Origin: an uncultured Bacilli bacterium
GTDB lineage: Bacteria; Bacillota_I; Bacilli_A; RF39; UBA660
Length of the DNA stretch: 64,000 nucleotides
Direction of reading: 5' to 3'
NCBI GenBank assembly: GCA_910584165.1
Contig: CAJTZU010000002.1
Span: 141,811-205,810 of the forward strand
Part shown: positions 6,598 to 61,512 of the stretch, piece after piece
Layout of the letters: every line of letters begins with the position of its first letter
How positions within the stretch are numbered: the stretch's first letter is position 1
Program-made: the position numbers and the translations under genes
The notes under the pieces: generated by a model
What the model saw: the letters and a program-made list of their open reading frames with translations, nothing else
Told to the model about the DNA's origin: nothing
Databases searched by the model: none

Positions 6598-7713
6598 ATG
6601 AGAAAGAAAAAAGAAGAGGAATTTAAAGTAGAAGTAACCCAAACTTTGGAGCCACATGAACTAAAGAAAACAGTTTATTTTGGATATAATACAAGATTAC
6701 TATTAAATATTTTAATATGTATTTCTTTTTTAGGACTTGGAATTTTTTATTTAATAGAGTCTATTAATTTTAGCAAGGAAGAAAGTATTCGTTATAAAGA
6801 GAATAGTAGTTTAGATTATAAAGTATATTTAAAAGAAAATGATTTTTATGATACTCCTTATTTAACAAAAGATATGGCTTATATTGCTAGTTTAATTGAT
6901 ACGATTAATATAGACTTTAATTATTTATTTTCGATAGATACAATTTCTAATATGGATTTTTCTTATGGCATTTATGGAAATTTAATTATTGCTGATGAAT
7001 CTGGGGAAAATACTTATTTTGAGAAAGAATATAACTTATTAAATAATAAGCAAGTAAATATGGTAGAATCTAAATCACAGGAAATTAAGGAAAATATTTC
7101 TATTGATTATGGTTATTATAATCGTTTAGCAAATGATTTTAAAATGTCTTATGCAATAGATACGACTAGTTATTTAAAAGTATATTTAAAAATTGATAAA
7201 AAGAACGCAGAAAAAGAAACAAAATTTGATTTAAATGATACAGACGAGTTAGCTATTACTATCCCATTATCAGAGAAGGCTATTCAAATTAAAATGGATT
7301 ATATGAATCTTAATGAAACTAATCAGGTTTTAGCGCAACCAGAAGTAGCAGTAGAGGATATGACAGTATTAGTAATTTCTATTATTTTATTCCTTGTTAG
7401 TATTATTAGTTTTATTAAAATAATTAGATTATTATCTTTATTAAAAGTTAGAAGTTCTAATTTTGATAAATATATTAATAAAATTTTATCAGAATATGAT
7501 AGATTAGTGGTAGAAACAGTTTCTTGTCCAAATTTAACGGATAATAATGTAATTAAAATTAAGAAGTTTGAAGAATTATTAGATGTAAGAGATAATTTAA
7601 AATTGCCAATAATGTATTACTTATTAGTAAAGCATCATAAAGCTTATTTCTATATTAAACATAATAATGATATTTTCCTTTTAACTGTTAAAGCAGTTGA
7701 TTTGGAGAAGTAG
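6598..7713 (+). CDS. Membrane protein of unknown function within the SipW cluster
   Basis: 371 aa with an N-terminal TM (LLLNILICISFLGLGIFYLI) and a C-terminal TM (VLVISIILFLVSIISFIKII). Tightly spaced with its neighbours. Confidence 0.6.
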   Translation: MRKKKEEEFKVEVTQTLEPHELKKTVYFGYNTRLLLNILICISFLGLGIFYLIESINFSKEESIRYKENSSLDYKVYLKENDFYDTPYLTKDMAYIASLIDTINIDFNYLFSIDTISNMDFSYGIYGNLIIADESGENTYFEKEYNLLNNKQVNMVESKSQEIKENISIDYGYYNRLANDFKMSYAIDTTSYLKVYLKIDKKNAEKETKFDLNDTDELAITIPLSEKAIQIKMDYMNLNETNQVLAQPEVAVEDMTVLVISIILFLVSIISFIKIIRLLSLLKVRSSNFDKYINKILSEYDRLVVETVSCPNLTDNNVIKIKKFEELLDVRDNLKLPIMYYLLVKHHKAYFYIKHNNDIFLLTVKAVDLEK

Positions 7714-33195: not shown

Positions 33196-33705
33196 ATGCT
33201 GGAAGTAGAAAGAAAATATAAATTAAAATATTTGCCAGATCTTTTGGATAACTATGAACGTGAAGACATAGAGCAAGCATATTTAAATTTTGGTAGTAAG
33301 CCAGCAGTTCGAATAAGAATGATAAATGGGATTGATTGCTTTTTGTATTGTAAAAGCAAAAAAGATAATGCAAACGGTTTTCAAGTATGTGAGGAGTATG
33401 AGATACCTTTATCTAAAGATGCCTATACTCATTTAATGATGAAGATTGATGGACGTGTTTTAAGAAAAAGAAGATACATCATTCCTTTAGCTCAAGAATT
33501 AAAAGTAGAACTTGATTTATTTGAAGATTTTTTTGATGGTGTATGCATTGCAGAAATAGAGTTTCCAAATGAGGAAATAGCGAACACTTTTAAATTACCA
33601 GATTGGATTGGCGAAAACATTTCTGATGATGAAAGAATCGCCAATGGTTTTATGGCTGTAAAAGCAAAGAAGATAAGTGAGTATAAAGATTTGATTATAA
33701 AATAA
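33196..33705 (+). CDS. CYTH domain protein (CyaB/YjbK-like triphosphate tunnel metalloenzyme)
   Basis: N-terminal ExExK (LEVERKYKL) and a CYTH-like acidic strand pattern. Confidence 0.65.
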   Translation: MLEVERKYKLKYLPDLLDNYEREDIEQAYLNFGSKPAVRIRMINGIDCFLYCKSKKDNANGFQVCEEYEIPLSKDAYTHLMMKIDGRVLRKRRYIIPLAQELKVELDLFEDFFDGVCIAEIEFPNEEIANTFKLPDWIGENISDDERIANGFMAVKAKKISEYKDLIIK

Positions 33706-33721
33706 AAAAGGAGATAAATAA

Positions 33722-33988
33722 ATGTTTGAATTAGTATCAAAATATACTCCTAATGGAGACCAACCACAAGCTATTGAAAAATTAGTGAGTGGTATAAAAA
33801 ATGGAGAAAAACATCAAGTATTATTAGGTGCAACAGGTACAGGGAAAACTTTTACAATTGCAAACGTTATTAAAGAAGTAAATAAACCTACACTTGTTTT
33901 AGCGCATAATAAAACATTAGCAGGACAATTATATGGAGAGTTAAAAGAGTTATTTCCAAATAATGCAGTAGAGTATTTTGTTTCGTAG
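33722..33988 (+). pseudogene. uvrB: uvrB truncated after codon 88 at the mobile-element junction
   Basis: The N-terminus matches UvrB ([14 protein letters not shown]..., [11 protein letters not shown] Walker [17 protein letters not shown]) and ends ...AVEYFVS* where UvrB normally continues YYDYYQPEAY. Downstream the sequence is non-coding and AT-rich. Confidence 0.8.
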
Positions 33989-34052
33989 TATGATATGGAT
34001 TGAAAAAGCCTTATTTTTAGGGGTTTTTAGTAGTGTTTAATCCATAAAAATA

Positions 34053-34083
34053 GACTAAAAAACACTAAAAAATACTAAAAAAA
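34053..34083. repeat. 3 x 10-bp phased direct repeats (G/C/T)ACTAAAAAA near the element terminus
   Basis: GACTAAAAAA, CACTAAAAAA and TACTAAAAAAA in tandem. An upstream partial inverted copy is TAGTAGTGTTT. Confidence 0.7.
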
Positions 34084-34156
34084 CAAATACACTTTGTGAC
34101 TTTTATTCGTGTAAATTCGTGCATATAAAAAAATGATAAAAAAAGGAGGATTTATA

Positions 34157-34480
34157 ATGAATCAAGAAAGAATAAAAATAGATGGAACACTTTTAGATAC
34201 TATAAAGAAAAATAGAAAAATGATAAGAGAAGATAATTCATTACCAACAAATGAAGATATATTGAAATTATTTGGTATAGAAAACGAAAAAGATATTGAA
34301 GCAAATGATTACTTCCAATTTTATAAATGCTTTGGCAATAATGTTGAATTATATAAAACATTAAAACAATTTAAAGAAGAAGCAGAAGTATCGTGGCAAG
34401 ATATAAAAAACATAAAATGGGGAGATATGGATTTAGAGAATAATACAGTAATTTTTAAAGATAAAGCAGAAGTTAGATAA
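34157..34480 (+). CDS. Hypothetical protein
   Basis: AAAGGAGG RBS before ATG 34157; the track starts at 34133. Confidence 0.5.
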   Translation: MNQERIKIDGTLLDTIKKNRKMIREDNSLPTNEDILKLFGIENEKDIEANDYFQFYKCFGNNVELYKTLKQFKEEAEVSWQDIKNIKWGDMDLENNTVIFKDKAEVR

Positions 34481-34587
34481 AACATATTTTGAACTGATTA
34501 GAAATAGTCAGTTCTTTTTTTATGCCCATACATAGCCATTTTATATTTATAGAGTGGCTAGAGTTTAAAGAAAGGAGGAAAATGTAT

Positions 34588-35412
34588 ATGTCGCAATGCA
34601 AAGTAATTGCAGTGGCTAATCAAAAAGGTGGTGTGGGCAAAACCACTACGGCTTTTAATCTAGGAATCGCATTATCAAATCTAGGTAAAAAAGTGTTATT
34701 AGTTGATACTGATCCACAGGGTGATTTAACTACTTATGCAGGTTGGTATGAGCAAGACAAAATACAGAAAACTTTATCTACTTTAATGGAACAATCAATA
34801 AATGATGAGCCAATAAAAGCAGAAGAAACCATTTTACACCATAAAGAAAATATTGATTTAATTCCATCTAATTTGGATTTATCTGTATTAGAAATGTCAT
34901 TAGTAAATGCAATGAGTAGAGAGTACACTATGAGAAATTGTTTATCAGAAGTAAAAAAGGATTATGATTATGTCATATTAGACTGTATGCCGAGTTTAGG
35001 AATGATAACAATAAATGCTTTAGCCTGTGCAGATAGTGTAATTATTCCAGTACAAAGCCAATATTTTGCTGCAAAAGGTATGACACAGTTATTGCAGTCT
35101 ATAAAGAAAGTAAAAAAACAAATCAATCCAGATTTAAAGATTGATGGTGTTTTACTTACTTTGGTAGATAAAAGAACTAATCTATCAAGAAATATAGAGA
35201 AGCAATTAAGAGAAGATTATGGAAGTGCATTAAAAATCTATAATACACAAATACCTCTTGCAATAAAAACTGCTGAATCTACACAACAGGGTAAGAGTAT
35301 ATTTACTTATGATAAGAGCAGTAAAGTGGCAGAAGCATATTCTTCGTTTGCAAAGGAGGTGCTTGAAGATGGCAAAGAGCGAACAAAGAATGCCGTTGCC
35401 AAAGTTAGATGA
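34588..35412 (+). CDS. parA: ParA/Soj-family partition ATPase
   Basis: Deviant Walker A motif (KGGVGKTT in AVANQKGGVGKTTTAFNLG). Confidence 0.85.
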   Translation: MSQCKVIAVANQKGGVGKTTTAFNLGIALSNLGKKVLLVDTDPQGDLTTYAGWYEQDKIQKTLSTLMEQSINDEPIKAEETILHHKENIDLIPSNLDLSVLEMSLVNAMSREYTMRNCLSEVKKDYDYVILDCMPSLGMITINALACADSVIIPVQSQYFAAKGMTQLLQSIKKVKKQINPDLKIDGVLLTLVDKRTNLSRNIEKQLREDYGSALKIYNTQIPLAIKTAESTQQGKSIFTYDKSSKVAEAYSSFAKEVLEDGKERTKNAVAKVR

Positions 35413-36307
35413 TTTATTTACAACAGAAACCGAGCGACAAGAAGCAGAATTAGAAAAAGTTAAAAATATATCACTAACAGATATTCAAGATTTTCCAGAA
35501 CACCCTTTTAGAGTTATTGTAAATGATGAATTGCAAGAAATGGCAAACAGTATTAAAAAAGATGGTGTCCAAGAACCTGCGTTAGTTAGACCACTTCCAA
35601 ATGGTAAATATGAAATGATTTCTGGTCATAGAAGAAAAAAAGCAAGTGAAATTGCTAATAAAGAAACTATGCCTTGTCTTGTTCGAGATTTAACAGATGA
35701 ACAAGCAGCGATTATAATGGTAGATAGTAATTTACAACAAAGACAAAAAATACTATTTAGTGAAAAAGCATTTGCTTATAAAATGAAATTGGAAGCAATG
35801 AAAAAGCAGGGATTTAGAACAGATTTAACTTCTGACCAAATTGGGGAGAAGTTGACATCAGTAGAAAAATTATCTGCTAATAGTCCAGATAGTAAATCAC
35901 AAATACAAAGATTTATAAGACTTACTGAACTAACAAAAAGTTTGCTTGATATGGTAGATGAAGAAGTCATTGCATTTAGTCCGGCAGTAGAAATATCATA
36001 TCTTACTAAAGAAGAACAAAAATGGCTTCTTAATAGTATTGAATGTAATATTGCTACACCAACTTTATCACAAGCCCAAGAAATGAAACGATTAAGTCAA
36101 AGTGGGAATTTAGATGAAGATAAAATCGAAGAAATAATGAGCCGTGAAAAACCTAATCAAGTGGAAAAACTAAAATTAGATTTTAAGACACTAGCACCTA
36201 AAATGCCAAAAGGTATGCCATCAACAAAATATACAGAGCATATCTTCAAAGCATTGGACTTCTACAACAAGTATTTGGAAAAACAAAAATCAATGGGAGC
36301 AAGATAA
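35369..36307 (+). CDS. parB: ParB/Spo0J-like partition protein
   Basis: ParB N-terminal box (PFRVIVNDELQEMANSIKKDGVQEPALVRP...ISGHRRKKAS). ATG 35369 follows AAAGGAGG and overlaps the parA 3' end. Confidence 0.75.
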   Translation: MAKSEQRMPLPKLDDLFTTETERQEAELEKVKNISLTDIQDFPEHPFRVIVNDELQEMANSIKKDGVQEPALVRPLPNGKYEMISGHRRKKASEIANKETMPCLVRDLTDEQAAIIMVDSNLQQRQKILFSEKAFAYKMKLEAMKKQGFRTDLTSDQIGEKLTSVEKLSANSPDSKSQIQRFIRLTELTKSLLDMVDEEVIAFSPAVEISYLTKEEQKWLLNSIECNIATPTLSQAQEMKRLSQSGNLDEDKIEEIMSREKPNQVEKLKLDFKTLAPKMPKGMPSTKYTEHIFKALDFYNKYLEKQKSMGAR

Positions 36308-37267: not shown

Positions 37268-39997
37268 ATGAAAAAAATTGGAATGTGCCTAGCCTTAACG
37301 CTAGGTCTTTTAGTCGGATTTACTGTTAATGCTCAAGCAGTAAGTGCAGCGACTTTAAAGAAAACAGACTCTGGATATTATTATGACAGAGCAAGAGCAG
37401 ATGGAAGTGACCACCATTCTTGGCACTATATGCAATATGAAATGGATGGAGAAGTTTCATACTGTATAGAGCCAAATGTACCAGAGGGAACAATTTACAA
37501 TCCCGGAAGTTGGGAAGCAACAGGACTTCCAAATGAAATAAAAGAAAGATTATTGTTAATTGGCTACTATGGATACACTTATCCGGGACACCAAACACTA
37601 CAATATCGTGCAGCAACACAAGGAATGATATGGGACATTATCATTGGTCACGGAGCAAATACCACTTTCTCAACAGAAAGATGGGGAGCAGGTGCAAGTT
37701 TTGATGTATCAGCAGAGAAAGCAGAAATCAATAGACTTATCGAACACCATTATGATAGACCAAGTTTTGATGGTAGTGTATATAAAGCACAAGTAGGAGA
37801 AACAATTACACTAACAGATACTAACAATGTATTATCACAATATAGTGTAAGCGTTAGTGGTGCTGAATATAGTGTTAATGGAAATACACTAACAATTAAG
37901 CCTACAAGAGATGGAAAGATAGATTTAACTTTAACAAAGAATATGCCTTATGCAAGTGGATATAAGTTATTTGTTGGAAATGAAATTCAAAATATGTTTG
38001 TTCCGGGAACTACTGATCCAGTTATGGCAAGAGTTAGAGTAAATAGTTATACAACACCAGTAGAGGGATATAAGCAAGATGTTGAAACTGGAACTGCACA
38101 GGGACAGGCAACTTTAAAGGGTGCCGAATATGGCGTATATGAAACTGCCACAGGAAGATTAGTAACAACAGTAGTTACTGATGAAAACGGTTATTTCAAA
38201 AGTGACGCAGTATTAGATTGGAACGATTACTATTTACAAGAAATTAAACCAAGTGAGGGTTATGAATTAGACAAAACTCGTTATAATGTAGATGTAAAAG
38301 GAAAAGACTCTGCAAGAGTTGATGTAGTAGAAAAAGTTATTAAAAACTATATTTCTATCTTAAAACAATATGAATATGTAGAGGGAGAAACAAAATTCTT
38401 AAATGCAGAAAAAGGTATTACTTTTGAGATTTATTATCCAAATGGAAATAAATTTGATGAAATAACAACAGATAAAAACGGTTATGCTTCTATCAATTTA
38501 CCTTATGGAGTTTGGAAATTCCATCAAGTAAATACTACAACAGGTTATGAGAAGATTTATGACTTCTATATAACAGTAAGTGAAACAAGTGAAAAAGAAC
38601 AATATTACAATGTATTAAATAATTCTTTGACTGCATATCTACAAGTAATCAAAGTAGATGAAGAAACTGGAAAGACTATCGCTATTGCAGATACTACTTT
38701 CAAAATCTTCAATACAGACACTAATCAATATGTATCACAATTTGTTGGTGGTAAAGTTATTAGTGAATTTAAGACAGATGAAAATGGTATTTTAGTAACA
38801 CCATTAAAATTAGTTGCAGGAAATTACAAACTAATTGAGGTATCTGCACCAAATGGCTACTTAAAAGATAAAAATGGTTTAAAATTTACTATCGGAAATG
38901 ATACACACTATAATTACACAACTTATGGAGCATTTATTACAGTAACTTATAAAAACACTCCAATTAAAGGACAATTAGAAATTCAAAAAACTGGAGAAGA
39001 TTTAGTTATAAAAGATAGCGAATATGTTTATGAAAAGAAAAAATTAAGTGGTGTAACTTTTGAAATCTACGCTGAAGAAGATATTTTATCTGCTGATGGA
39101 AACCATTTATATTACAATAAGGGAGATTTAGTAGATACTATCGTTACAAATGAGAACGGTTATGCTATTACAAAGAAATTGCCACTTGGAAAATACTATC
39201 TAATCGAAGTAAAAACACAAGATGACTATATTCTTGATGGTAATAAGCATTATTTCACTTTAAAACAAGTAGATGATGAAACTCCAGTAGTTTATGAATC
39301 ATATAGTGCTTTAAATTATCTTAAAAAGGCTACTATCGAATTTACTAAAAATGATCTAGTAAATGGAGATGTTATAGCAGACACTATCATTGAAATCTAC
39401 ACAGAAAAAGATGAACTAATCTTTACTGGAAAAACTGATAAAGATGGAAAAATTGTTATTACTGATTTAAAAGTTGGAAAATACTATATTTTAGAAAAAG
39501 AGCCAAGTACAGGCTATGTAATTACTGATGAAAAAGTTTATTTTGAATTAAAAGAAAACGGAGAAATCGTTAAGGCTGAAATGAAAAATAAACCAGTAAC
39601 TGGAACTCTTGAATTTACAAAAACAGATGTAAGTACAGGAGAGCCACTTCCAAATACACTTATTGAAATCTACAATGATAAAGATGAGTTAATCTTTAGT
39701 GGAAGAACAGATGAAAACGGTAAAATCACTATTCCAGAAATTCGCTTTGGAAAATACTATATTTTAGAAAAGGAAGCACCAGAGGGCTATACACTTAATC
39801 CAGAAAGAATGTATTTTGAAATTCTTGAAGATGGAGAAATTGTAAAAGCAACAATGACTGATGAAAAAGTAATCGTTGATGTACCAAGTACAGGAATTAC
39901 TGATTCACACTTTATTGAAATTATTGGAGCATTACTTACTCTAGGTGGAATAGGAGTGATCGTTTATGTTAAAAAGAAAAAATCAAATCAAGAATAA
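37268..39997 (+). CDS. Sortase-anchored surface adhesin with Cna-B-type repeats
   Basis: Signal peptide MKKIGMCLALTLGLLVGFTVNAQA. Three repeats of ...GTLEFTKTD...GE.L.N..IEIY...DELIF.G.TD.(N/D)GKI.I..L..GKYYILEKE.P.GY. The C-terminal sorting signal is VPSTG, then a hydrophobic stretch, then KKKK. Confidence 0.8.
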   Translation: MKKIGMCLALTLGLLVGFTVNAQAVSAATLKKTDSGYYYDRARADGSDHHSWHYMQYEMDGEVSYCIEPNVPEGTIYNPGSWEATGLPNEIKERLLLIGYYGYTYPGHQTLQYRAATQGMIWDIIIGHGANTTFSTERWGAGASFDVSAEKAEINRLIEHHYDRPSFDGSVYKAQVGETITLTDTNNVLSQYSVSVSGAEYSVNGNTLTIKPTRDGKIDLTLTKNMPYASGYKLFVGNEIQNMFVPGTTDPVMARVRVNSYTTPVEGYKQDVETGTAQGQATLKGAEYGVYETATGRLVTTVVTDENGYFKSDAVLDWNDYYLQEIKPSEGYELDKTRYNVDVKGKDSARVDVVEKVIKNYISILKQYEYVEGETKFLNAEKGITFEIYYPNGNKFDEITTDKNGYASINLPYGVWKFHQVNTTTGYEKIYDFYITVSETSEKEQYYNVLNNSLTAYLQVIKVDEETGKTIAIADTTFKIFNTDTNQYVSQFVGGKVISEFKTDENGILVTPLKLVAGNYKLIEVSAPNGYLKDKNGLKFTIGNDTHYNYTTYGAFITVTYKNTPIKGQLEIQKTGEDLVIKDSEYVYEKKKLSGVTFEIYAEEDILSADGNHLYYNKGDLVDTIVTNENGYAITKKLPLGKYYLIEVKTQDDYILDGNKHYFTLKQVDDETPVVYESYSALNYLKKATIEFTKNDLVNGDVIADTIIEIYTEKDELIFTGKTDKDGKIVITDLKVGKYYILEKEPSTGYVITDEKVYFELKENGEIVKAEMKNKPVTGTLEFTKTDVSTGEPLPNTLIEIYNDKDELIFSGRTDENGKITIPEIRFGKYYILEKEAPEGYTLNPERMYFEILEDGEIVKATMTDEKVIVDVPSTGITDSHFIEIIGALLTLGGIGVIVYVKKKKSNQE

Positions 39998-40622
39998 GAA
40001 AGGTAGTAAGAGTCAACTAATTATAGTTGGCTCTTTACTTATCATTCTAGGTATTGGAGTAATTGGTGGTAAGTATTTATATAATTATCTTCAAACAAAA
40101 AATGAAGAACAGTTAATTGATACTTTCTTTGAAGAACAAAAAGAAATAATCGAAGATACCACTCCAGAAACACCAGAAGAAAAAGTAGAAAGTGAAACAC
40201 CACAAACTACTAAAAGTAAAATAGATTATTTTGCAGTAATTAAAATACCTAAAATTGGGTTAGAAAAAGGACTAGCAAATAAAGGCAGTTATTATAACAA
40301 TGTTAATAGAAATATACTTGTTCTTAATGAATCTGATATGCCAGATAAGGATAAAGGAAATATGATACTTGCAGGACACTCTGGAAGTGGAAGAACTGCA
40401 TATTTTAAGAATCTTCATAAATTACAAGCAGATGATGAAGTGAGTATTTTCTATAATGGATACGAGTATAAGTACAAAGTCGTTAATCAATACGATATTG
40501 AAAAAACTGGAACTGCAAACATTGTTAGAAATGCTGAAAAAAGTACCTTAACTTTAATTACTTGCAGACACAATACAAATAAGCAGATTATTTATATTTG
40601 TGAATTAGTAGAGAAAGTTTAG
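39966..40622 (+). CDS. Sortase (class A/B-like transpeptidase)
   Basis: ILAGHSG (catalytic His) and TLTLITC (catalytic Cys). N-terminal TM anchor. Confidence 0.8.
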   Translation: MLKRKNQIKNKKGSKSQLIIVGSLLIILGIGVIGGKYLYNYLQTKNEEQLIDTFFEEQKEIIEDTTPETPEEKVESETPQTTKSKIDYFAVIKIPKIGLEKGLANKGSYYNNVNRNILVLNESDMPDKDKGNMILAGHSGSGRTAYFKNLHKLQADDEVSIFYNGYEYKYKVVNQYDIEKTGTANIVRNAEKSTLTLITCRHNTNKQIIYICELVEKV

Positions 40623-51143: not shown

Positions 51144-52103
51144 ATGGCATATTATCCACCAGAAGTGATACAAAAAGCAAAGCAAATGGACTTATTAACT
51201 TATCTAAAAAATTATGAGCCAGATGAGTTAGTTCATTTTAGTAGAGATACTTATGTGACTAGAACACACGATAGTTTGAAAATATCAAATGGTATGTGGT
51301 ATTGGTTTTCACAAAGTATTGGTGGCAAAAGTGCATTAGAATATTTGATAAAAGTACGAGATTATTCTTTTTTACAAGCAGTAGAAACTATTGTAGGAAG
51401 TGTTGTAGCAGCACCACCTAAAATATATAAAGCAGTTAAAAAAACGATACCAGATAGACTAATGTTACCAAAGAAAGCACCTAATAATGATAAAGTAAAA
51501 TCTTATCTTATTGGCAGGGGAATTGATGAGGCTATCATACAAGAGTGTATTGATAATGATTTAATTTATCAACAATTTCCTAATAACAATGTAGTATTTA
51601 TTGGGTATGATCCTAATAAAAAAGCAAGATATGCAATGTGCAGAGGAACGAATGAAAGTAATTTCAAACAAGAAATATATGGAAGTCATAAGGCATTTTC
51701 TTTTCAGTTAGAAGCAATAGAAAGTAGAGATAGTGTTCATTTATTTGAGAGTGCTATTGATTTACTTTCTTATGCAACTCTAATGAAATTAGAAGATAAA
51801 GAATGGTATAATGAATCACTACTTTCACTTGCAGGAGTTTACAAACCGGCTACTAATATTGAAGATAGTAAGTTGCCACTTGCTTTAAATTATTACTTGA
51901 ATCAACACCCAAATGTTAAAAGAATCTACTTGCATTTAGATAATGATAAGGCAGGTAGAGAATCAACTGAAGCAATAAAATATTTATTAAAAGATAGATA
52001 CGAAGTCATTGATAATCCAGTTCCAATAGGTAAGGATGTCAATGATTTTTTATGTACCAAATTAGGAATTAAAACTAAAAATGCAAAAGAAAGAGAGAGA
52101 TAA
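51144..52103 (+). CDS. Primase-like protein (DUF3991-like N-terminus plus Toprim domain)
   Basis: Toprim acidic motif (HLDNDKAGRE in IYLHLDNDKAGRESTEAIKYL). The N-terminal layout is common in Firmicutes conjugative-element primases. Confidence 0.55.
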   Translation: MAYYPPEVIQKAKQMDLLTYLKNYEPDELVHFSRDTYVTRTHDSLKISNGMWYWFSQSIGGKSALEYLIKVRDYSFLQAVETIVGSVVAAPPKIYKAVKKTIPDRLMLPKKAPNNDKVKSYLIGRGIDEAIIQECIDNDLIYQQFPNNNVVFIGYDPNKKARYAMCRGTNESNFKQEIYGSHKAFSFQLEAIESRDSVHLFESAIDLLSYATLMKLEDKEWYNESLLSLAGVYKPATNIEDSKLPLALNYYLNQHPNVKRIYLHLDNDKAGRESTEAIKYLLKDRYEVIDNPVPIGKDVNDFLCTKLGIKTKNAKERER

Positions 52104-55212: not shown

Positions 55213-55283
55213 AACGATTAGATTATGTAGGGCTTATCAATAAAATGATAGGCTCTTTTTTTATTGGAAAGAAAGGAGAAACA

Positions 55284-56633
55284 ATGGCTACTACTGGTAT
55301 ATGGAAAATTGAAAAGAGATTAGACCACGTTATAGATTATACAACGAACATTGAAAAGACTCTTAATAGTGATTATGGAAAAGAAGCATACAAAGAACTT
55401 CATAATGTTATCGAATATGCTGAAGCAGATTTTAAAACAGAGAATCAATACTATGTTACTGGTCTTAATTGTTCAGTTGAGAGTGCATACGAAGAAATGC
55501 TTATCACAAAGCAACAATATAATAAGACAGGTGGTATTTTAGGTTTTCACGCATTCCAGTCTTTTAAAGAGGGAGAAGTTACTCCAGAACAAGCACACGC
55601 TATTGGGGTTAAACTTGCTCAAGAAATGTGGGGAGACCGTTTTGAGGTAATTGTTAGTACCCATCTTAATACGAAGCATTATCATAATCACTTTGTTATC
55701 AATTCTGTTAGTTTTAAAGATGGTAAGAGATATTATGATAAAAGAGAAACTTATGCTAGATTAAGACAACTATCTGATTCACTTTGTGAAGAATATGGCT
55801 TGTCTGTATTAGAAGAAAAACCGTGTAGAAATAGTAAAATAAACTATGCGAACTATTATAAAGGTTATGTTGAAAAGAACAATTACTATACTACTACAAA
55901 AGAAGATGTCGATAGAGCCATTGCACAAGCCTATTCTTATAAAGACTTTGAGTGCTTAATGAAAGCAATGGACTATGAACTAATTTATCGTGGTAGCAGA
56001 TTAAGTGTAAGGCGTGATCCATATAAAAAGCATATTCGTATAGAGAGAAGTTTTGGCTATGATTATAGCATTGATAGAATAAAAGAACGAATCGAAGTAG
56101 AACAGGCTCCTAGAGTACCTTTTATTGAAGAATATGGAAATAAAAAAAGACCTAAAACTTATACACCATTTAAGAAACAAAAGCACACAGGACTTTATGC
56201 TTTATATTTGCATTATTGCTATCTATTAAAAGTGTTTCCAACAGAATATCCGAATAAAAGGTTGTCGCCAGAAATTCGTGCCGACTTAAAAGAGTTAGAT
56301 AAAATATCGAAACAAACTGAATTGCTCGTGAGTAATAAACTAGATACTTACGAGCAATTTTTTGCGTTTAAGACACAAAAAACAAAAGAGTTAGATAGTC
56401 TGCTCGATAAGAGAAGTAAGTTGTGGTACAAACACAAGAAATCTAAAAATCCAAGTGAAAAGGAATCTATAAGAAATGAAATAGACCTTTTAAATAAAGA
56501 AATTAACCCATTACGAGAGGAGGTGGTTTTATGTGATGGTATAGAAGAAAGAACTCCTAAAATGGAGCAAAATGTAAGTGATTTTGAAGAAAAGAAAGAT
56601 AAGGAGGTGAAGAACAATGAACTCATCAAGTGA
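55284..56633 (+). CDS. Conjugative relaxase (MobA/MobL, PF03432-type nuclease domain)
   Basis: His-triad motif (HLNTKHYHNHFVIN in VSTHLNTKHYHNHFVINSV). AAAGGAG RBS before ATG 55284. Confidence 0.75.
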   Translation: MATTGIWKIEKRLDHVIDYTTNIEKTLNSDYGKEAYKELHNVIEYAEADFKTENQYYVTGLNCSVESAYEEMLITKQQYNKTGGILGFHAFQSFKEGEVTPEQAHAIGVKLAQEMWGDRFEVIVSTHLNTKHYHNHFVINSVSFKDGKRYYDKRETYARLRQLSDSLCEEYGLSVLEEKPCRNSKINYANYYKGYVEKNNYYTTTKEDVDRAIAQAYSYKDFECLMKAMDYELIYRGSRLSVRRDPYKKHIRIERSFGYDYSIDRIKERIEVEQAPRVPFIEEYGNKKRPKTYTPFKKQKHTGLYALYLHYCYLLKVFPTEYPNKRLSPEIRADLKELDKISKQTELLVSNKLDTYEQFFAFKTQKTKELDSLLDKRSKLWYKHKKSKNPSEKESIRNEIDLLNKEINPLREEVVLCDGIEERTPKMEQNVSDFEEKKDKEVKNNELIK

Positions 56634-57384
56634 CGCTGCTGAAAGTATTGTAAGAATGAGTTTGCAGGGAACAGAATTTGCTTTAAAGATTACTGGATCA
56701 TTAACAAAAAACTGTATAGCAGGACTTTATGCTTTATCTAAAGACCAAAAGAAATCAAAGGGTAAAACAACATTGAATAAAATGTTGAAGTCTGGAAAAG
56801 AGTTAAAAATCTTTACTATAAAAAAAGATGATTTAAAACTATTCCAACAAGAAGCCAAAAGATATGGTGTTTTATTTACTGCACTATTTGATAAGAAAAA
56901 TCCAGATGGGAAAGTAGATATTATGTGTAGAGCAGAGGACGCTGCTAAAATCAATAGAATTGTTAATCGTTTCAAATTATCATCTTATGATGAAGTATCT
57001 ATTAAGAGTGACATTATGAAATCTCGTGATAGTAAAGAAGCAAACGATAAGGGTATTGAAACTAAAAATCTTGATGACTTGGTAGATGATATTTTATCAA
57101 AGCCAGTTCAAAAGGAAGAAAATACAATGTCAAACCCGGAGTTAGCAAAGACAGAAAAAAGCCCTCTGTCCGAGCGTTCATCAACGAGCAAAAACAAGCC
57201 AGAGGTGGGTACTAATTCTGATAAAAAGCCATCTGTGAGAGAAGAAATTAAAAGTATCAAAGAAGAACAGAAGCAAAAAGCAGAACTAGAAAAATCTGAC
57301 TTAAAAAAGGATGTTCCAAACAAAGAAACTAAACACGAACAACCTAAAAATAAAAAGAAAAAATCTAAAGAAAGAGGGAAATAA
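56617..57384 (+). CDS. Conjugative-element protein of unknown function (possibly DUF3801/PcfB-like) with a Lys/Glu-rich C-terminus
   Basis: Positioned directly after the relaxase with an overlapping start. Confidence 0.5.
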   Translation: MNSSSDAAESIVRMSLQGTEFALKITGSLTKNCIAGLYALSKDQKKSKGKTTLNKMLKSGKELKIFTIKKDDLKLFQQEAKRYGVLFTALFDKKNPDGKVDIMCRAEDAAKINRIVNRFKLSSYDEVSIKSDIMKSRDSKEANDKGIETKNLDDLVDDILSKPVQKEENTMSNPELAKTEKSPLSERSSTSKNKPEVGTNSDKKPSVREEIKSIKEEQKQKAELEKSDLKKDVPNKETKHEQPKNKKKKSKERGK

Positions 57385-58279: not shown

Positions 58280-58486
58280 ATGAGAGAAACTATGAAAGTA
58301 TTAGAATTAGATAAATACGAAATAGGCATTATTATCAATGCACTTAATGATTTAAGAAATAGATTATTAAATGCTAAAGAAGATACCGAGCCTGTTGATG
58401 AAATATTGCTAAAAGCAATAGACGCTCCAGAAAAAAAAAGACCTCTTGTAAAGTGTTTAACGAGAGATGAGAGAAGATACTACTAG
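58280..58486 (+). CDS. Hypothetical small protein
   Basis: GGAGGA RBS. Confidence 0.45.
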   Translation: MRETMKVLELDKYEIGIIINALNDLRNRLLNAKEDTEPVDEILLKAIDAPEKKRPLVKCLTRDERRYY

Positions 58487-60287
58487 AACTACAAAATGGC
58501 TTTGTATTCTAGGAATTATTCCTACGATATGGTTGGCTCTTTTAATTGCTCCATATATAAATGGTGGTTTTCCTATGATTATAAAGGAATTTCCAAATGC
58601 AATAAATGAGCCTTTTAACCTATCTTGGTGTAATGATAGTGCAAGAACAATACTGATTTTTATAGTAGTTTATATTATGGGAATTGGTATTTGTTTATCT
58701 AATAAGAAAAACTACCGTAGGCGTGAAGAACACGGCTCTGCAAAGTGGGGCATTGCAAGTCAAGTAAATAAAAAGTATATGCAAAAGCCATTTTCAAATA
58801 ATAAAATACTAACCCAAAATGTAGGAGTTGGTATAAATGCCAAAAAACACAGAAGAAATTTGAATGTTTTAGTATGTGGTGGTAGTGGTGCAGGTAAAAC
58901 AAGATTTTATTGTAAGCCAAATATTATGCAGACAAATACTTCTTTTGTAGTGCTTGATCCGAAAGGAGAAATCGTAAGAGATTTGGGACACCTTTTAGAA
59001 AAGTCTGGTTACGAAGTAAAGGTATTGGATTTAATCAATATGGAAAGAAGCCATTGTTATAATCCTTTTGTTTATTTAAAATCAGACAATGATGTTCAAA
59101 AACTTGTAACGAACCTCTTTAAGGCAACGACACCAAAAGGCTCATCAAGTAATGATCCGTTCTGGGATACTGCTGCAAGTATGTTACTTTTAGCACTTGT
59201 CTTTTATTTAAAATATGAAGCACCAGAAGAAGAACAAAATTTCCCAATGGTTATGGAGTTATTAAGGGCAGGAGAAGTTCACGAAGATGATGATTCTTAT
59301 TTAAGTCCACTTGATGTACTATTTAATCGTTTGGAAAGCAGAGAGCCAGAACACATAGCAGTCAAATATTATCGTGATTATCGAAGTGGCTCGGCTAAAA
59401 CACTAAAGTCAATTCAAATTACACTTGCTTCAAGACTAGAAAAGTTTAACTTGGAAAGTTTGGCTTCTCTTACAATGGTAGATGAGTTAGATTTGCCATC
59501 ACTAGGAGAAAAGAAAGTAGCATTATTTGCACTTATACCAGACAATGACACGAGTTTTAATTTTCTAGTCAGCATTTTATATACGCAACTGTTTCAACAG
59601 TTGTTTTTTTTGGCAGACCATAAGTATGGTGGAAGTTTACCAGTACCAGTCCATTTTGTGATGGATGAGTTCGCCAATGTAAGTTTGCCAGATGACTTCG
59701 ACAAGATACTTTCAGTAATGAGAAGTAGAGAAGTATCAGTAAGCATTATTTTACAAAATTTAGCACAGTTAAAGGCTTTATTCGAGAAACAATGGGAATC
59801 AATAGTCGGTAACTGTGATGAGTTCCTTTACTTGGGTGGTAACGAACAAAGTACACATAAGTATGTTAGTGAATTGCTCGGAAAAGAAACAATAGATTTA
59901 GATACACACGGTAAGAGTACAGGACACTCTGGAAATTACTCTACTAATTATCAAATTAGTGGTAGAGAACTTTTGACACCAGATGAAGTAAGACTTTTAG
60001 ATAATCAATATGCTCTTTTATTCATAAGAGGAGAAAGACCAATTATGGATTTAAAGTATGACATATTAAAACACCCAAATGTATCAAAAACAACAGATGG
60101 GAAAGAAAAGCCTTATATTCACGGTGGAATAGAAAATGCAGTTGCTTCAATTATTGTAGATGAAGATATAAGCAATTATGAATTTACAGAAATTGAAGAA
60201 ATAGAAAACAATTATGAAATTTTATCTTCAGATGAGATAGAAGAATATTTTAAAGAAAAGGAGAATAGGAAAAATGAAAAACAATAA
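58467..60287 (+). CDS. Type IV coupling protein (VirD4/TraG family)
   Basis: Two N-terminal TM helices. Walker A (GGSGAGKT in VLVCGGSGAGKTRF) and Walker B HFVMDEFAN. Confidence 0.8.
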   Translation: MREDTTRTTKWLCILGIIPTIWLALLIAPYINGGFPMIIKEFPNAINEPFNLSWCNDSARTILIFIVVYIMGIGICLSNKKNYRRREEHGSAKWGIASQVNKKYMQKPFSNNKILTQNVGVGINAKKHRRNLNVLVCGGSGAGKTRFYCKPNIMQTNTSFVVLDPKGEIVRDLGHLLEKSGYEVKVLDLINMERSHCYNPFVYLKSDNDVQKLVTNLFKATTPKGSSSNDPFWDTAASMLLLALVFYLKYEAPEEEQNFPMVMELLRAGEVHEDDDSYLSPLDVLFNRLESREPEHIAVKYYRDYRSGSAKTLKSIQITLASRLEKFNLESLASLTMVDELDLPSLGEKKVALFALIPDNDTSFNFLVSILYTQLFQQLFFLADHKYGGSLPVPVHFVMDEFANVSLPDDFDKILSVMRSREVSVSIILQNLAQLKALFEKQWESIVGNCDEFLYLGGNEQSTHKYVSELLGKETIDLDTHGKSTGHSGNYSTNYQISGRELLTPDEVRLLDNQYALLFIRGERPIMDLKYDILKHPNVSKTTDGKEKPYIHGGIENAVASIIVDEDISNYEFTEIEEIENNYEILSSDEIEEYFKEKENRKNEKQ

Positions 60288-60675: not shown

Positions 60676-61512
60676 ATGTCTGGAAATTGGGTAGTACAGA
60701 ATTTGCAAAATGCTTTGGAAACTTGGAACAGTAAATTGTCAGAAATATGGCAACTTATTACACAGTCACCAGAACAATTTAAAGGTGGCACAATATGGAA
60801 TGTTATTGTGAATATTCACGGTGCATTACAAGCGATAGGCTTGGCACTATTAGTATTATTCTTTGTTATAGGTGTGATGAAAACTTGTGGCTCATTTGCA
60901 GAAGTAAAGAAGCCAGAACACGCACTTAAATTATTCATAAGGTTTGCTATTGCAAAGATAGTTGTGACTTATGGACTTAATCTAATGCTTTCAATATTTA
61001 AAATAGTACAGGGAGCAATATCTACTATTATGACAGCAGCAGGACTAGGTGGAGCGACACAAACAACACTTCCACAACAAGTAATTAGTGCAATAGAAAG
61101 TTGTGGTTTTTTTGAATCAATACCATTATGGGCAGTTACTCTTATCGGTGGTTTATTCATAACAGTATTGAGTTTCATAATGATAATGACTGTATATGGA
61201 AGATTCTTTAAATTATATTTATATACTGCCATTGCTCCGATACCACTTTCGACATTCGCAGGAGAGCCAGTACAAAATGTTGGTAAAAGTTTCTTGAAAT
61301 CATATTGTTCTGTATGTTTAGAGGGTGCAATTATAGTTCTTGCTTGTATTATCTTCTCATTATTTGCTTCTAGTCCACCAGTAGTGGACACAAATGCAGC
61401 AGCCGTGACACAAGTCTGGAAGTATATTGGAGAGTTAGTTTTCAATATGTTAGTGTTAGTTGGAACAATAAAACTGGCAGATCGTGTTGTAAGAGAAATG
61501 ATGGGATTATAG
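60676..61512 (+). CDS. Polytopic membrane protein, VirB6/TrbL-like conjugal channel component
   Basis: At least 5 TM helices. Sits immediately after the T4CP and Maff2 genes. Confidence 0.55.
   Translation: MSGNWVVQNLQNALETWNSKLSEIWQLITQSPEQFKGGTIWNVIVNIHGALQAIGLALLVLFFVIGVMKTCGSFAEVKKPEHALKLFIRFAIAKIVVTYGLNLMLSIFKIVQGAISTIMTAAGLGGATQTTLPQQVISAIESCGFFESIPLWAVTLIGGLFITVLSFIMIMTVYGRFFKLYLYTAIAPIPLSTFAGEPVQNVGKSFLKSYCSVCLEGAIIVLACIIFSLFASSPPVVDTNAAAVTQVWKYIGELVFNMLVLVGTIKLADRVVREMMGL

Follow-up and report, generated by a model that had tools for sequence, protein, structure and literature searches.

The DNA analyzed here, a 64,000-nucleotide window of an uncultured Bacilli genome, holds at 33722-34132 what we read, at a probability of roughly 0.9, as the left attachment site (attL) of a ~51.1-kb integrative and conjugative element (ICE) that has inserted into uvrB, replacing the 5' end of the gene while keeping the gene intact. 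A sequence-only reading of the same stretch had recognized the terminus of a site-specific conjugative element inside uvrB at about codon 88, and this holds: the element ends share an 11-bp core with the host target, and a conspecific strain has an empty site. The same reading had taken uvrB to be interrupted and, in one of its two alternatives, inactivated; the inactivation is refuted by a full-length, in-frame 647-aa uvrB on the same contig, whose product scores 1075.6 bits over its full length against the NCBIfam UvrB equivalog (cut-off 743). Seen directly are the trio of attB, attL and attR, the chimeric gene and attL on one contig, conspecific empty sites, and the conservation of motifs in the element arms (Table 1).

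Table 1. Features of the left element end, of the element genes that follow it and of related remnants (window positions unless a contig is named).
Feature	Position	Strand	Basis or remark
CYTH protein, 169 aa, upstream neighbour of uvrB stub	33196-33705		
Displaced native uvrB 5' end, 88 codons and TAG stop	33722-33988	+	ORF list, Pfam, empty-site identity
11-bp core TATTTTGTTTC, same in attB, attL and attR	33974-33984	.	Three-way alignment
Non-coding element left arm (P' arm of attL)	33985-34132	.	L090 divergence; L019, L015, L064 alignment
Two CTAAAAA units, inverted (TTTTTAG on + strand), 10 bp apart	34014-34030	-	Read from sequence
Three 10-bp phased A-tract repeats (G/C/T)ACTAAAAAA	34053-34082	+	Exact matches
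44-bp block with TTTGTGAC and two ATTCGTG	34082-34125	+	77% to L093 9851-9894, direct orientation
First element gene, 107 aa, no family match	34157-34480	+	ORF list, Pfam; alternative ATG at 34133
Terminator-like hairpin after first element gene	34491-34514		
ParA	34522-35412	+	Pfam
ParB	35309-36307	+	Pfam
SpaA/thioester adhesin, sortase-anchored	37268-39997	+	Pfam
Sortase	39966-40622	+	Pfam
SNF2 helicase, 2631 aa	41442-49337	+	Pfam
DUF3991/Toprim	51144-52103	+	Pfam
MobA/VirD2 relaxase	55245-56633	+	Pfam PF03432
DUF3801	56617-57384	+	Pfam
VirD4-type coupling protein (T4SS-DNA_transf/TraG-D_C)	58467-60287	+	Pfam
TrbL-like (TrbL_2)	60676-61512	+	Pfam
Fossil or miniature element derivatives	L015 8431-10270; L009 9463-10000; L059 9122-10000		

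At the left junction the N-terminus of UvrB is intact, as had been proposed, running from MFELV through ...NNAVEYFVS in an 88-aa translation that matches the Pfam families ResIII/DEAD and includes the Walker A motif (GATGTGKT). The in-frame TAG that ends it had also been noticed; it lies at 33986-33988 rather than at 33989, and is contributed by the element. An exact-sequence look-up of the CYTH neighbour returned 24 long contigs, 22 with the stub and the element and two with an empty site, occupied and empty sites thus being mixed among conspecific strains. The empty sites (L090, a conspecific strain from JGI 3300006168, and L091, from ENA) show the order CYTH, intact 647-aa uvrB, holin-like, lgt, cofD-like, whiA, DHH, rplI and dnaB, and the stub DNA is 100% identical to the start of the intact gene in L090 up to 33984. 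The sequence-only reading had stated that its claim would fall if the fragment were a decayed duplicate beside a separate intact uvrB; the separate intact gene does exist, and the fragment itself is best described not as a decayed duplicate but as the displaced 5' end of the native gene.

Alignment with L090 also places the boundary between host and element. Identity continues to base 33984, ending ...GAGTATTTTGTTTC, past which the window reads G TA G TATGA TATGGATTG... and the empty site C TA T TATGA CTATTATCAGCC... The ~12 nt after the stop do resemble uvrB, as had been observed, but since the window diverges from L090 at 33985 these bases are already element DNA mimicking the target, the first 13 bp of the left arm (33985-33997, GTAGTATGATATG) imitating the uvrB sequence that they replace (CTATTATGACTAT). 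In a three-way alignment, attB of L090 reads GTAGAG-TATTTTGTTTC-CTATTATGAC, attL of the window GTAGAG-TATTTTGTTTC-GTAGTATGAT, and attR, on contig L093, GTCGAA-TATTTTGTTTC-CTATTATGAC. The core TATTTTGTTTC, which corresponds to uvrB nt 253-263 in codons 85-88, is the sole stretch common to all three, with the last element/host mismatch on its left at uvrB nt 252 and the first on its right at nt 264. Because no other stretch is identical in the three sites, strand exchange must, on this alignment, have occurred inside the core, and not at 33990-34000 where the junction had been placed. The corresponding attP, reconstructed from attL and attR only, would be expected to read ...GTCGAATATTTTGTTTCGTAGTATGATATGG... 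Beyond the stub, the window continues with ~150 bp of non-coding, AT-rich DNA followed by conjugative element genes, as previously described; the first of these had been placed at 34157, a position that stands alongside an alternative start at the ATG at 34133.

The rest of uvrB had been suggested to lie past the far end of the element, and the host 3' part is indeed found there, in frame, at a right junction 51.1 kb downstream of the stub. NCBI contig CASUMP010000003.1 (L001) matches the window at 100% identity throughout the 20,267 bp of the comparison, and carries the stub at 34395-34661 and a 647-aa uvrB (protein P0244) at 85485-87428; the stub and the full-length gene also occur as a pair on one JGI contig, Ga0080710_1000005. 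With the C-terminal 559 residues of native UvrB as query, five 647-aa proteins were recovered that match this part at ~100% identity. Between one of them, P0244, and the native protein (P0242) there are 17 differences within residues 3-82 and a single one in the other 559 aa, and the DNA of the two genes has 62 mismatches in nt 1-252 (75% identity) and two in nt 253-1947 (99.9% identity). No other close pair among 83 uvrB genes has such discordance between N- and C-terminal parts. Downstream, the flank of the chimeric gene has the same genes as the empty-site strain and is identical to it at 7527 of 7530 positions. The other end of the element, where the uvrB 3' portion resumes inside a chimeric gene, and the intact second uvrB whose search had been advised are therefore found together on the contig of the stub. 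Among indexed collection blocks from NCBI, JGI, ENA and Logan assemblies, the stub is present in 44 and the chimeric uvrB in 36.

The chimeric UvrB keeps the Walker A motif and the full domain set, and is predicted to be functional. With uvrB whole at the right junction, nothing points to a repair-deficient or mutator phenotype of the kind at first envisaged. Adjoining the chimeric gene on its upstream side are an HTH_17 Xis-like gene and two tandem tyrosine recombinase genes. A simple scan of this upstream DNA gave no convincing sigma-70 promoter, and the chimeric gene would be expressed either from a promoter borne by the element or by read-through from the int genes.

At its right end the element holds a uvrB start of its own, consisting of an upstream region, a ribosome-binding site and codons 1 to ~84 with the Walker A motif, which is ~75% identical in DNA to that of the host and ends in the core TATTTTGTTTC; we propose that this start is part of attP. 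Recombination in the core would join the host 5' end to the element left arm, yielding the 88-codon stub with its element-encoded TAG, and the same event would fuse the element-borne 5' end to the 3' 1.7 kb of the host gene, yielding a full-length chimeric uvrB directly downstream of xis-intA-intB. In such a scheme uvrB would stay intact while the element is resident and precise excision would restore the native gene. The element presumably carries a promoter for uvrB, and either of the two recombinases may act.

Were the element instead to split uvrB and leave it non-functional for as long as it is integrated, the host would be repair-deficient or a mutator, or the locus would work as a gene-reconstitution switch like SpyCIM1 in mutL or skin in sigK. 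The cut in the host's own 5' end after codon 88, closed by a stop, and the many short N-terminal UvrB fragments in public data that stop at the same residue would suit this explanation, which we nevertheless hold to be very improbable, as the other junction on the same contig has a full-length in-frame uvrB built of the element 5' end and the host 3' end, and the product passes the UvrB equivalog cut-off. The excess of short UvrB homologues, moreover, reflects the query length used in the search and not a rarity of intact genes. With the 88-aa stub as query the best 120 homologues were all 88-154 aa long, and a 60-aa query returned only proteins of 64-105 aa and found no uvrB C-terminal fragment; since the search returns query-like lengths, distributions of hit length are no evidence for the frequency of truncation. 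For this reason we dropped the idea that nearly every uvrB gene of the clade is split.

Equally slight, in our estimate, is the chance that the element entered by homologous (Campbell-type) recombination through the 252 bp of uvrB homology and not site-specifically at the core. The element does carry a long segment homologous to its target, and in a related locus (L015) the uvrB 5' region is directly repeated in near-identical copies of ~375 bp, but the homology between element and host is just 75% identical, the breakpoint is sharp and falls exactly at its 3' edge, independent elements in other species have junctions at the same codons, and two tyrosine recombinases and a Xis-like gene adjoin the site; serial integrations account better for the L015 repeats. 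Least probable of all is that the pairing of stub and chimeric gene arose in assembly or binning, or by a local duplication that is decaying and has nothing to do with the element. The sequences do come from metagenome-assembled genomes, and a 264-bp repeat could in principle mislead assemblers, but the two uvrB 5' copies, at 75% identity, are not collapsible repeats, independent NCBI, JGI, ENA and Logan assemblies show the same arrangement on at least 22 long contigs, and both flanks match the empty site exactly.

The recombinases encoded at the right end (404 and 462 aa, each with a Phage_integrase domain) lie directly upstream of attR on L093, and both carry the R...HxxR...H...Y motifs in alignments to PDB 3nkh and Tn1549 Int, which are the best recombinase matches, at low similarity. 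The two are ~28-30% identical to each other (L093 7166-9758; L032 7372-9740), and the pair is conserved next to attR in two distant family members with its catalytic motifs kept. A large serine recombinase, which the gene content of the element had led us to expect, was rejected: the right end encodes tyrosine recombinases, and the att sites share an 11-bp core, not the 2-bp crossover of that class. No Resolvase/Recombinase Pfam family was found in the called genes of L001, L004 and L093 or in the scanned window ORFs.

By its gene content the element can be classified as a ~51.1-kb tyrosine-recombinase ICE, which extends ~21 kb beyond the window end (64000). Contigs L004 and L007 are identical to the window over 10.8 kb, and L004 continues with PrgI, a VirB4-like ATPase (P-loop_TraG), a cell-wall hydrolase, AbiEi/AbiEii, VanR, VanS, VanW and VanG, while the right end on L093 has VanT, VanZ, PemK, the Xis-like gene, the two tyrosine recombinases and the chimeric uvrB. 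Genes of a self-transfer module are present, namely those for a relaxase, a coupling protein, a VirB4-like ATPase, PrgI and TrbL. The coupling protein scores 527.6 bits against NCBIfam conju_CD1115 (cut-off 250). In one variant of the element (L005, Logan run ERR12418700) the relaxase gene is split by a group II intron ORF with RVT_1, Intron_maturas2 and HNH domains (505-2397), leaving relaxase pieces of 149 aa and 316 aa on either side, an arrangement reminiscent of Ll.LtrB in the relaxase gene of pRS01.

The cargo beyond the window end (L004 16781-20450 and L093 1-2392) is a probable operon of the vanG type, with VanR, VanS, VanW, the VanG ligase, a membrane acyltransferase part, the serine-racemase part of VanT and VanZ. 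The catalytic part of VanT scores 504.7 bits against a curated cut-off of 460, and the VanG ligase 457.1 bits against a cut-off of 495, on 297 of ~349 residues in a truncated locus. The element also carries AbiEi/AbiEii and a PemK-family toxin. With its probable vanG-type operon it predominates in this species, occurring in 22 of the 24 longest contigs examined, and cargo of this type is relevant to tracking reservoirs of glycopeptide resistance among gut commensals.

The left arm of the element carries several repeats. The three 10-bp phased repeats noted earlier were recovered as exact matches at 34054-34082 (ACTAAAAAA units at 34054-34062, 34064-34072 and 34074-34082), and upstream of them, where a partial inverted copy had been noted, lies the inverted TTTTTAG pair at 34014-34020 and 34024-34030. 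The block at 34014-34030 (TTTTAGT.GT.TTTAAT) is conserved in L019, L015 and L064. On its own the ACTAAAAAA 9-mer is no more frequent in the window than expected (5 matches vs 5.7 expected); we regard the tandem array itself as non-random, because related elements of other species (L019, L015) keep it at the same place in their left arms and an inverted copy stands at the right end (L093 9825-9849, 88% over 25 bp). Similarly, the adjoining 44-bp block, whose ATTCGTG motifs lie at 34105-34111 and 34115-34121, is conserved in L019 and L015, with right-end blocks conserved in L032 and L015. Three inverted ATTCGTG copies occur at L093 9928-9966, between the right-end 44-bp block and the element-borne uvrB start, and the motif is found nine times in the window vs 2.8 expected.

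The phased A-tracts and the 44-bp block are probably recombinase-binding or DNA-bending sites, and we infer that the phased array and the ATTCGTG motifs represent the bending and the recombinase/excisionase binding modules of a large attP. On the right side the uvrB 5' segment comes between, so that these putative arm sites lie 290-430 bp from the core, an unusually large distance for sites of the classical arm type; their role as arm sites is uncertain as a result. A LexA site was considered and rejected, since inspection by eye showed no palindromic LexA (Cheo) box in the ATTCGTG repeats. As RNA, the left arm does not fold significantly (z = -1.5).

To assess the generality of the arrangement, we surveyed genomes with a related UvrB N-terminus, 80 species representatives among the matches listed, and uvrB is intact in most of these. 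The same kind of left junction occurs at the same uvrB codon in L019 and L064, with ParA/ParB-sized genes downstream in L019, and in L032 an intact uvrB is immediately preceded by xis-intA-intB, at 44% identity in amino acids. Three further loci (L009, L059 and L015) appear as fossils, in which a dead or partial uvrB 5' fragment is followed by a few hundred bp of fused element ends and then by an intact uvrB. The fused ends keep the conserved GTGTTAAAATA, TAGTGTTATTTAGT and TTTGTGGCC blocks, and the fossils contain at most one ORF (one each in L015 and L059). On the upstream side of its displaced fragment, L015 has DNA that again looks like the right end of the element, which suggests serial replacement of the uvrB 5' end. 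Public data also contain many short proteins in which UvrB N-terminal sequence runs to ...EYFVS(YY) and is followed by homologous tails such as NTLKxLLF, which are translations of the conserved left arm. Related genomes carry the labels uncultured Bacilli, Tenericutes, Erysipelotrichaceae and Clostridium sp. CAG:762, and a SpoIIR-family gene lies downstream on L093 (21529-21944) in a WhiA/CofD/DnaB neighbourhood. The host belongs to a 28% GC uncultured gut Bacilli lineage that is possibly spore-forming and, to judge by one source name (XIAO15-1), may come from the mouse gut.

These fossils point toward a broader and more tentative reading, which we consider possible but rather doubtful, in which ICEs of this family exchange uvrB 5' ends as cassettes: each integration would bring in a promoter region and an N-terminal ATPase segment of foreign origin, deletion of the element in place of its precise excision would fix that segment in the host, and host uvrB transcription may read into the element. 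On this reading the N-termini of UvrB in gut Bacilli, and the regulation of uvrB, would be mosaics produced by the traffic of ICEs. As to transcription, the native uvrB start lies 16 bp past the CYTH stop (window 33706-33721), and because only these 16 bp separate them the native gene is probably co-transcribed with the CYTH gene. After integration, the CYTH-uvrB transcript would cross the 88-codon stub into the first element gene. We consider such read-through because no terminator-like site was found between the uvrB stub and that gene, nor any before the hairpin at 34491-34514; if it takes place, it could couple expression of the ICE to the regulation of host uvrB, possibly in response to DNA damage.

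Returning to the replacement of the uvrB 5' end, its mechanism is ordinary and the target gene is the part for which no report was found: in the searchable literature we found no ICE or att site in uvrB, which is weak negative evidence, and the matches on uvrB and elements concerned elements between uvrB and secA, or uvrAB as cargo. The analysis documents a new ICE target site, uvrB codons 85-88 in uncultured low-GC gut Bacilli, and the target stretch encodes the near-universally conserved EYFVSYYDYY region. It also advises caution in annotation, as a truncated uvrB beside a mobile element need not mean that nucleotide excision repair is lost; here an intact uvrB lies 51 kb away and is partly encoded by the element. 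Tools that flag pseudogenes or delimit ICEs should expect displaced 5' fragments of this kind.

Among known systems the target-restoring strategy was previously best known from SXT and prfC. As in 5'-end replacement of that kind, the element described here has a copy of the 5' end of its target and leaves an intact hybrid gene. SXT/R391 elements are tyrosine-recombinase ICEs that target the 5' part of a conserved housekeeping gene, prfC (PMC2791158, PMC5812530). Here too the gene loses its own 5' end and gains, in frame, one supplied by the element, but the present element differs from SXT/R391 in its target (uvrB codons 85-88), its unrelated host group (low-GC uncultured gut Bacilli), its conjugation module (a CD1115-type VirD4 with a MobA/VirD2-type relaxase), its two tandem recombinases in place of one Int, and the length of the replaced segment, ~84 codons including the ATPase Walker A. 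SXT reportedly supplies a new promoter and 5' coding sequence and so makes a hybrid functional prfC, a result said to be that of Hochhut and Waldor in 1999. Membership in the SXT/R391 family was rejected, the target being uvrB and the recombinases being closest, though at low similarity, to 3nkh and Tn1549 Int.

Other elements preserve their target from the opposite side or disrupt it. Phage 21/e14 in icd, ICESt1/ICESt3 in fda and Tn5801 in guaA duplicate the 3' end of the target. The present element resembles them in that part of the target gene is copied in the att site, the frame is preserved, and a partial copy is displaced to the other junction; unlike in those elements, it is the 5' end and the upstream expression signals that are replaced, so that the element would take over the start of uvrB transcription and translation. 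By comparison, SpyCIM1 in mutL, phi10403S in comK, skin in sigK and SPbeta in spsM split the gene, which stays non-functional until excision, and the element shares with these switches a site-specific insertion inside a DNA-repair or developmental coding region. A gene-disrupting switch of this type was rejected, since the contig with the integrated element has a full-length uvrB at attR.

In its transfer genes and cargo the element is closest in kind to the CTn4-type (CD1115) elements of C. difficile, to Tn5252-like modules and to streptococcal vanG ICEs, with which it shares the conju_CD1115 coupling protein and, probably, the vanG-type cargo. The relaxase has weak similarity to the SAG1250 and MobP families, and ParA/ParB, the large SNF2 protein, DUF3801, PrgI and the VirB4-like ATPase form a gene set typical of CD1115/Tn5252-like elements. 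As far as is known, the described CD1115/Tn5252-like relatives use other sites, such as the 3' end of rplL, or serine recombinases. It is in the integration module and the target site that the element in uvrB departs from the CD1115/Tn5252-like elements and the streptococcal vanG ICEs.
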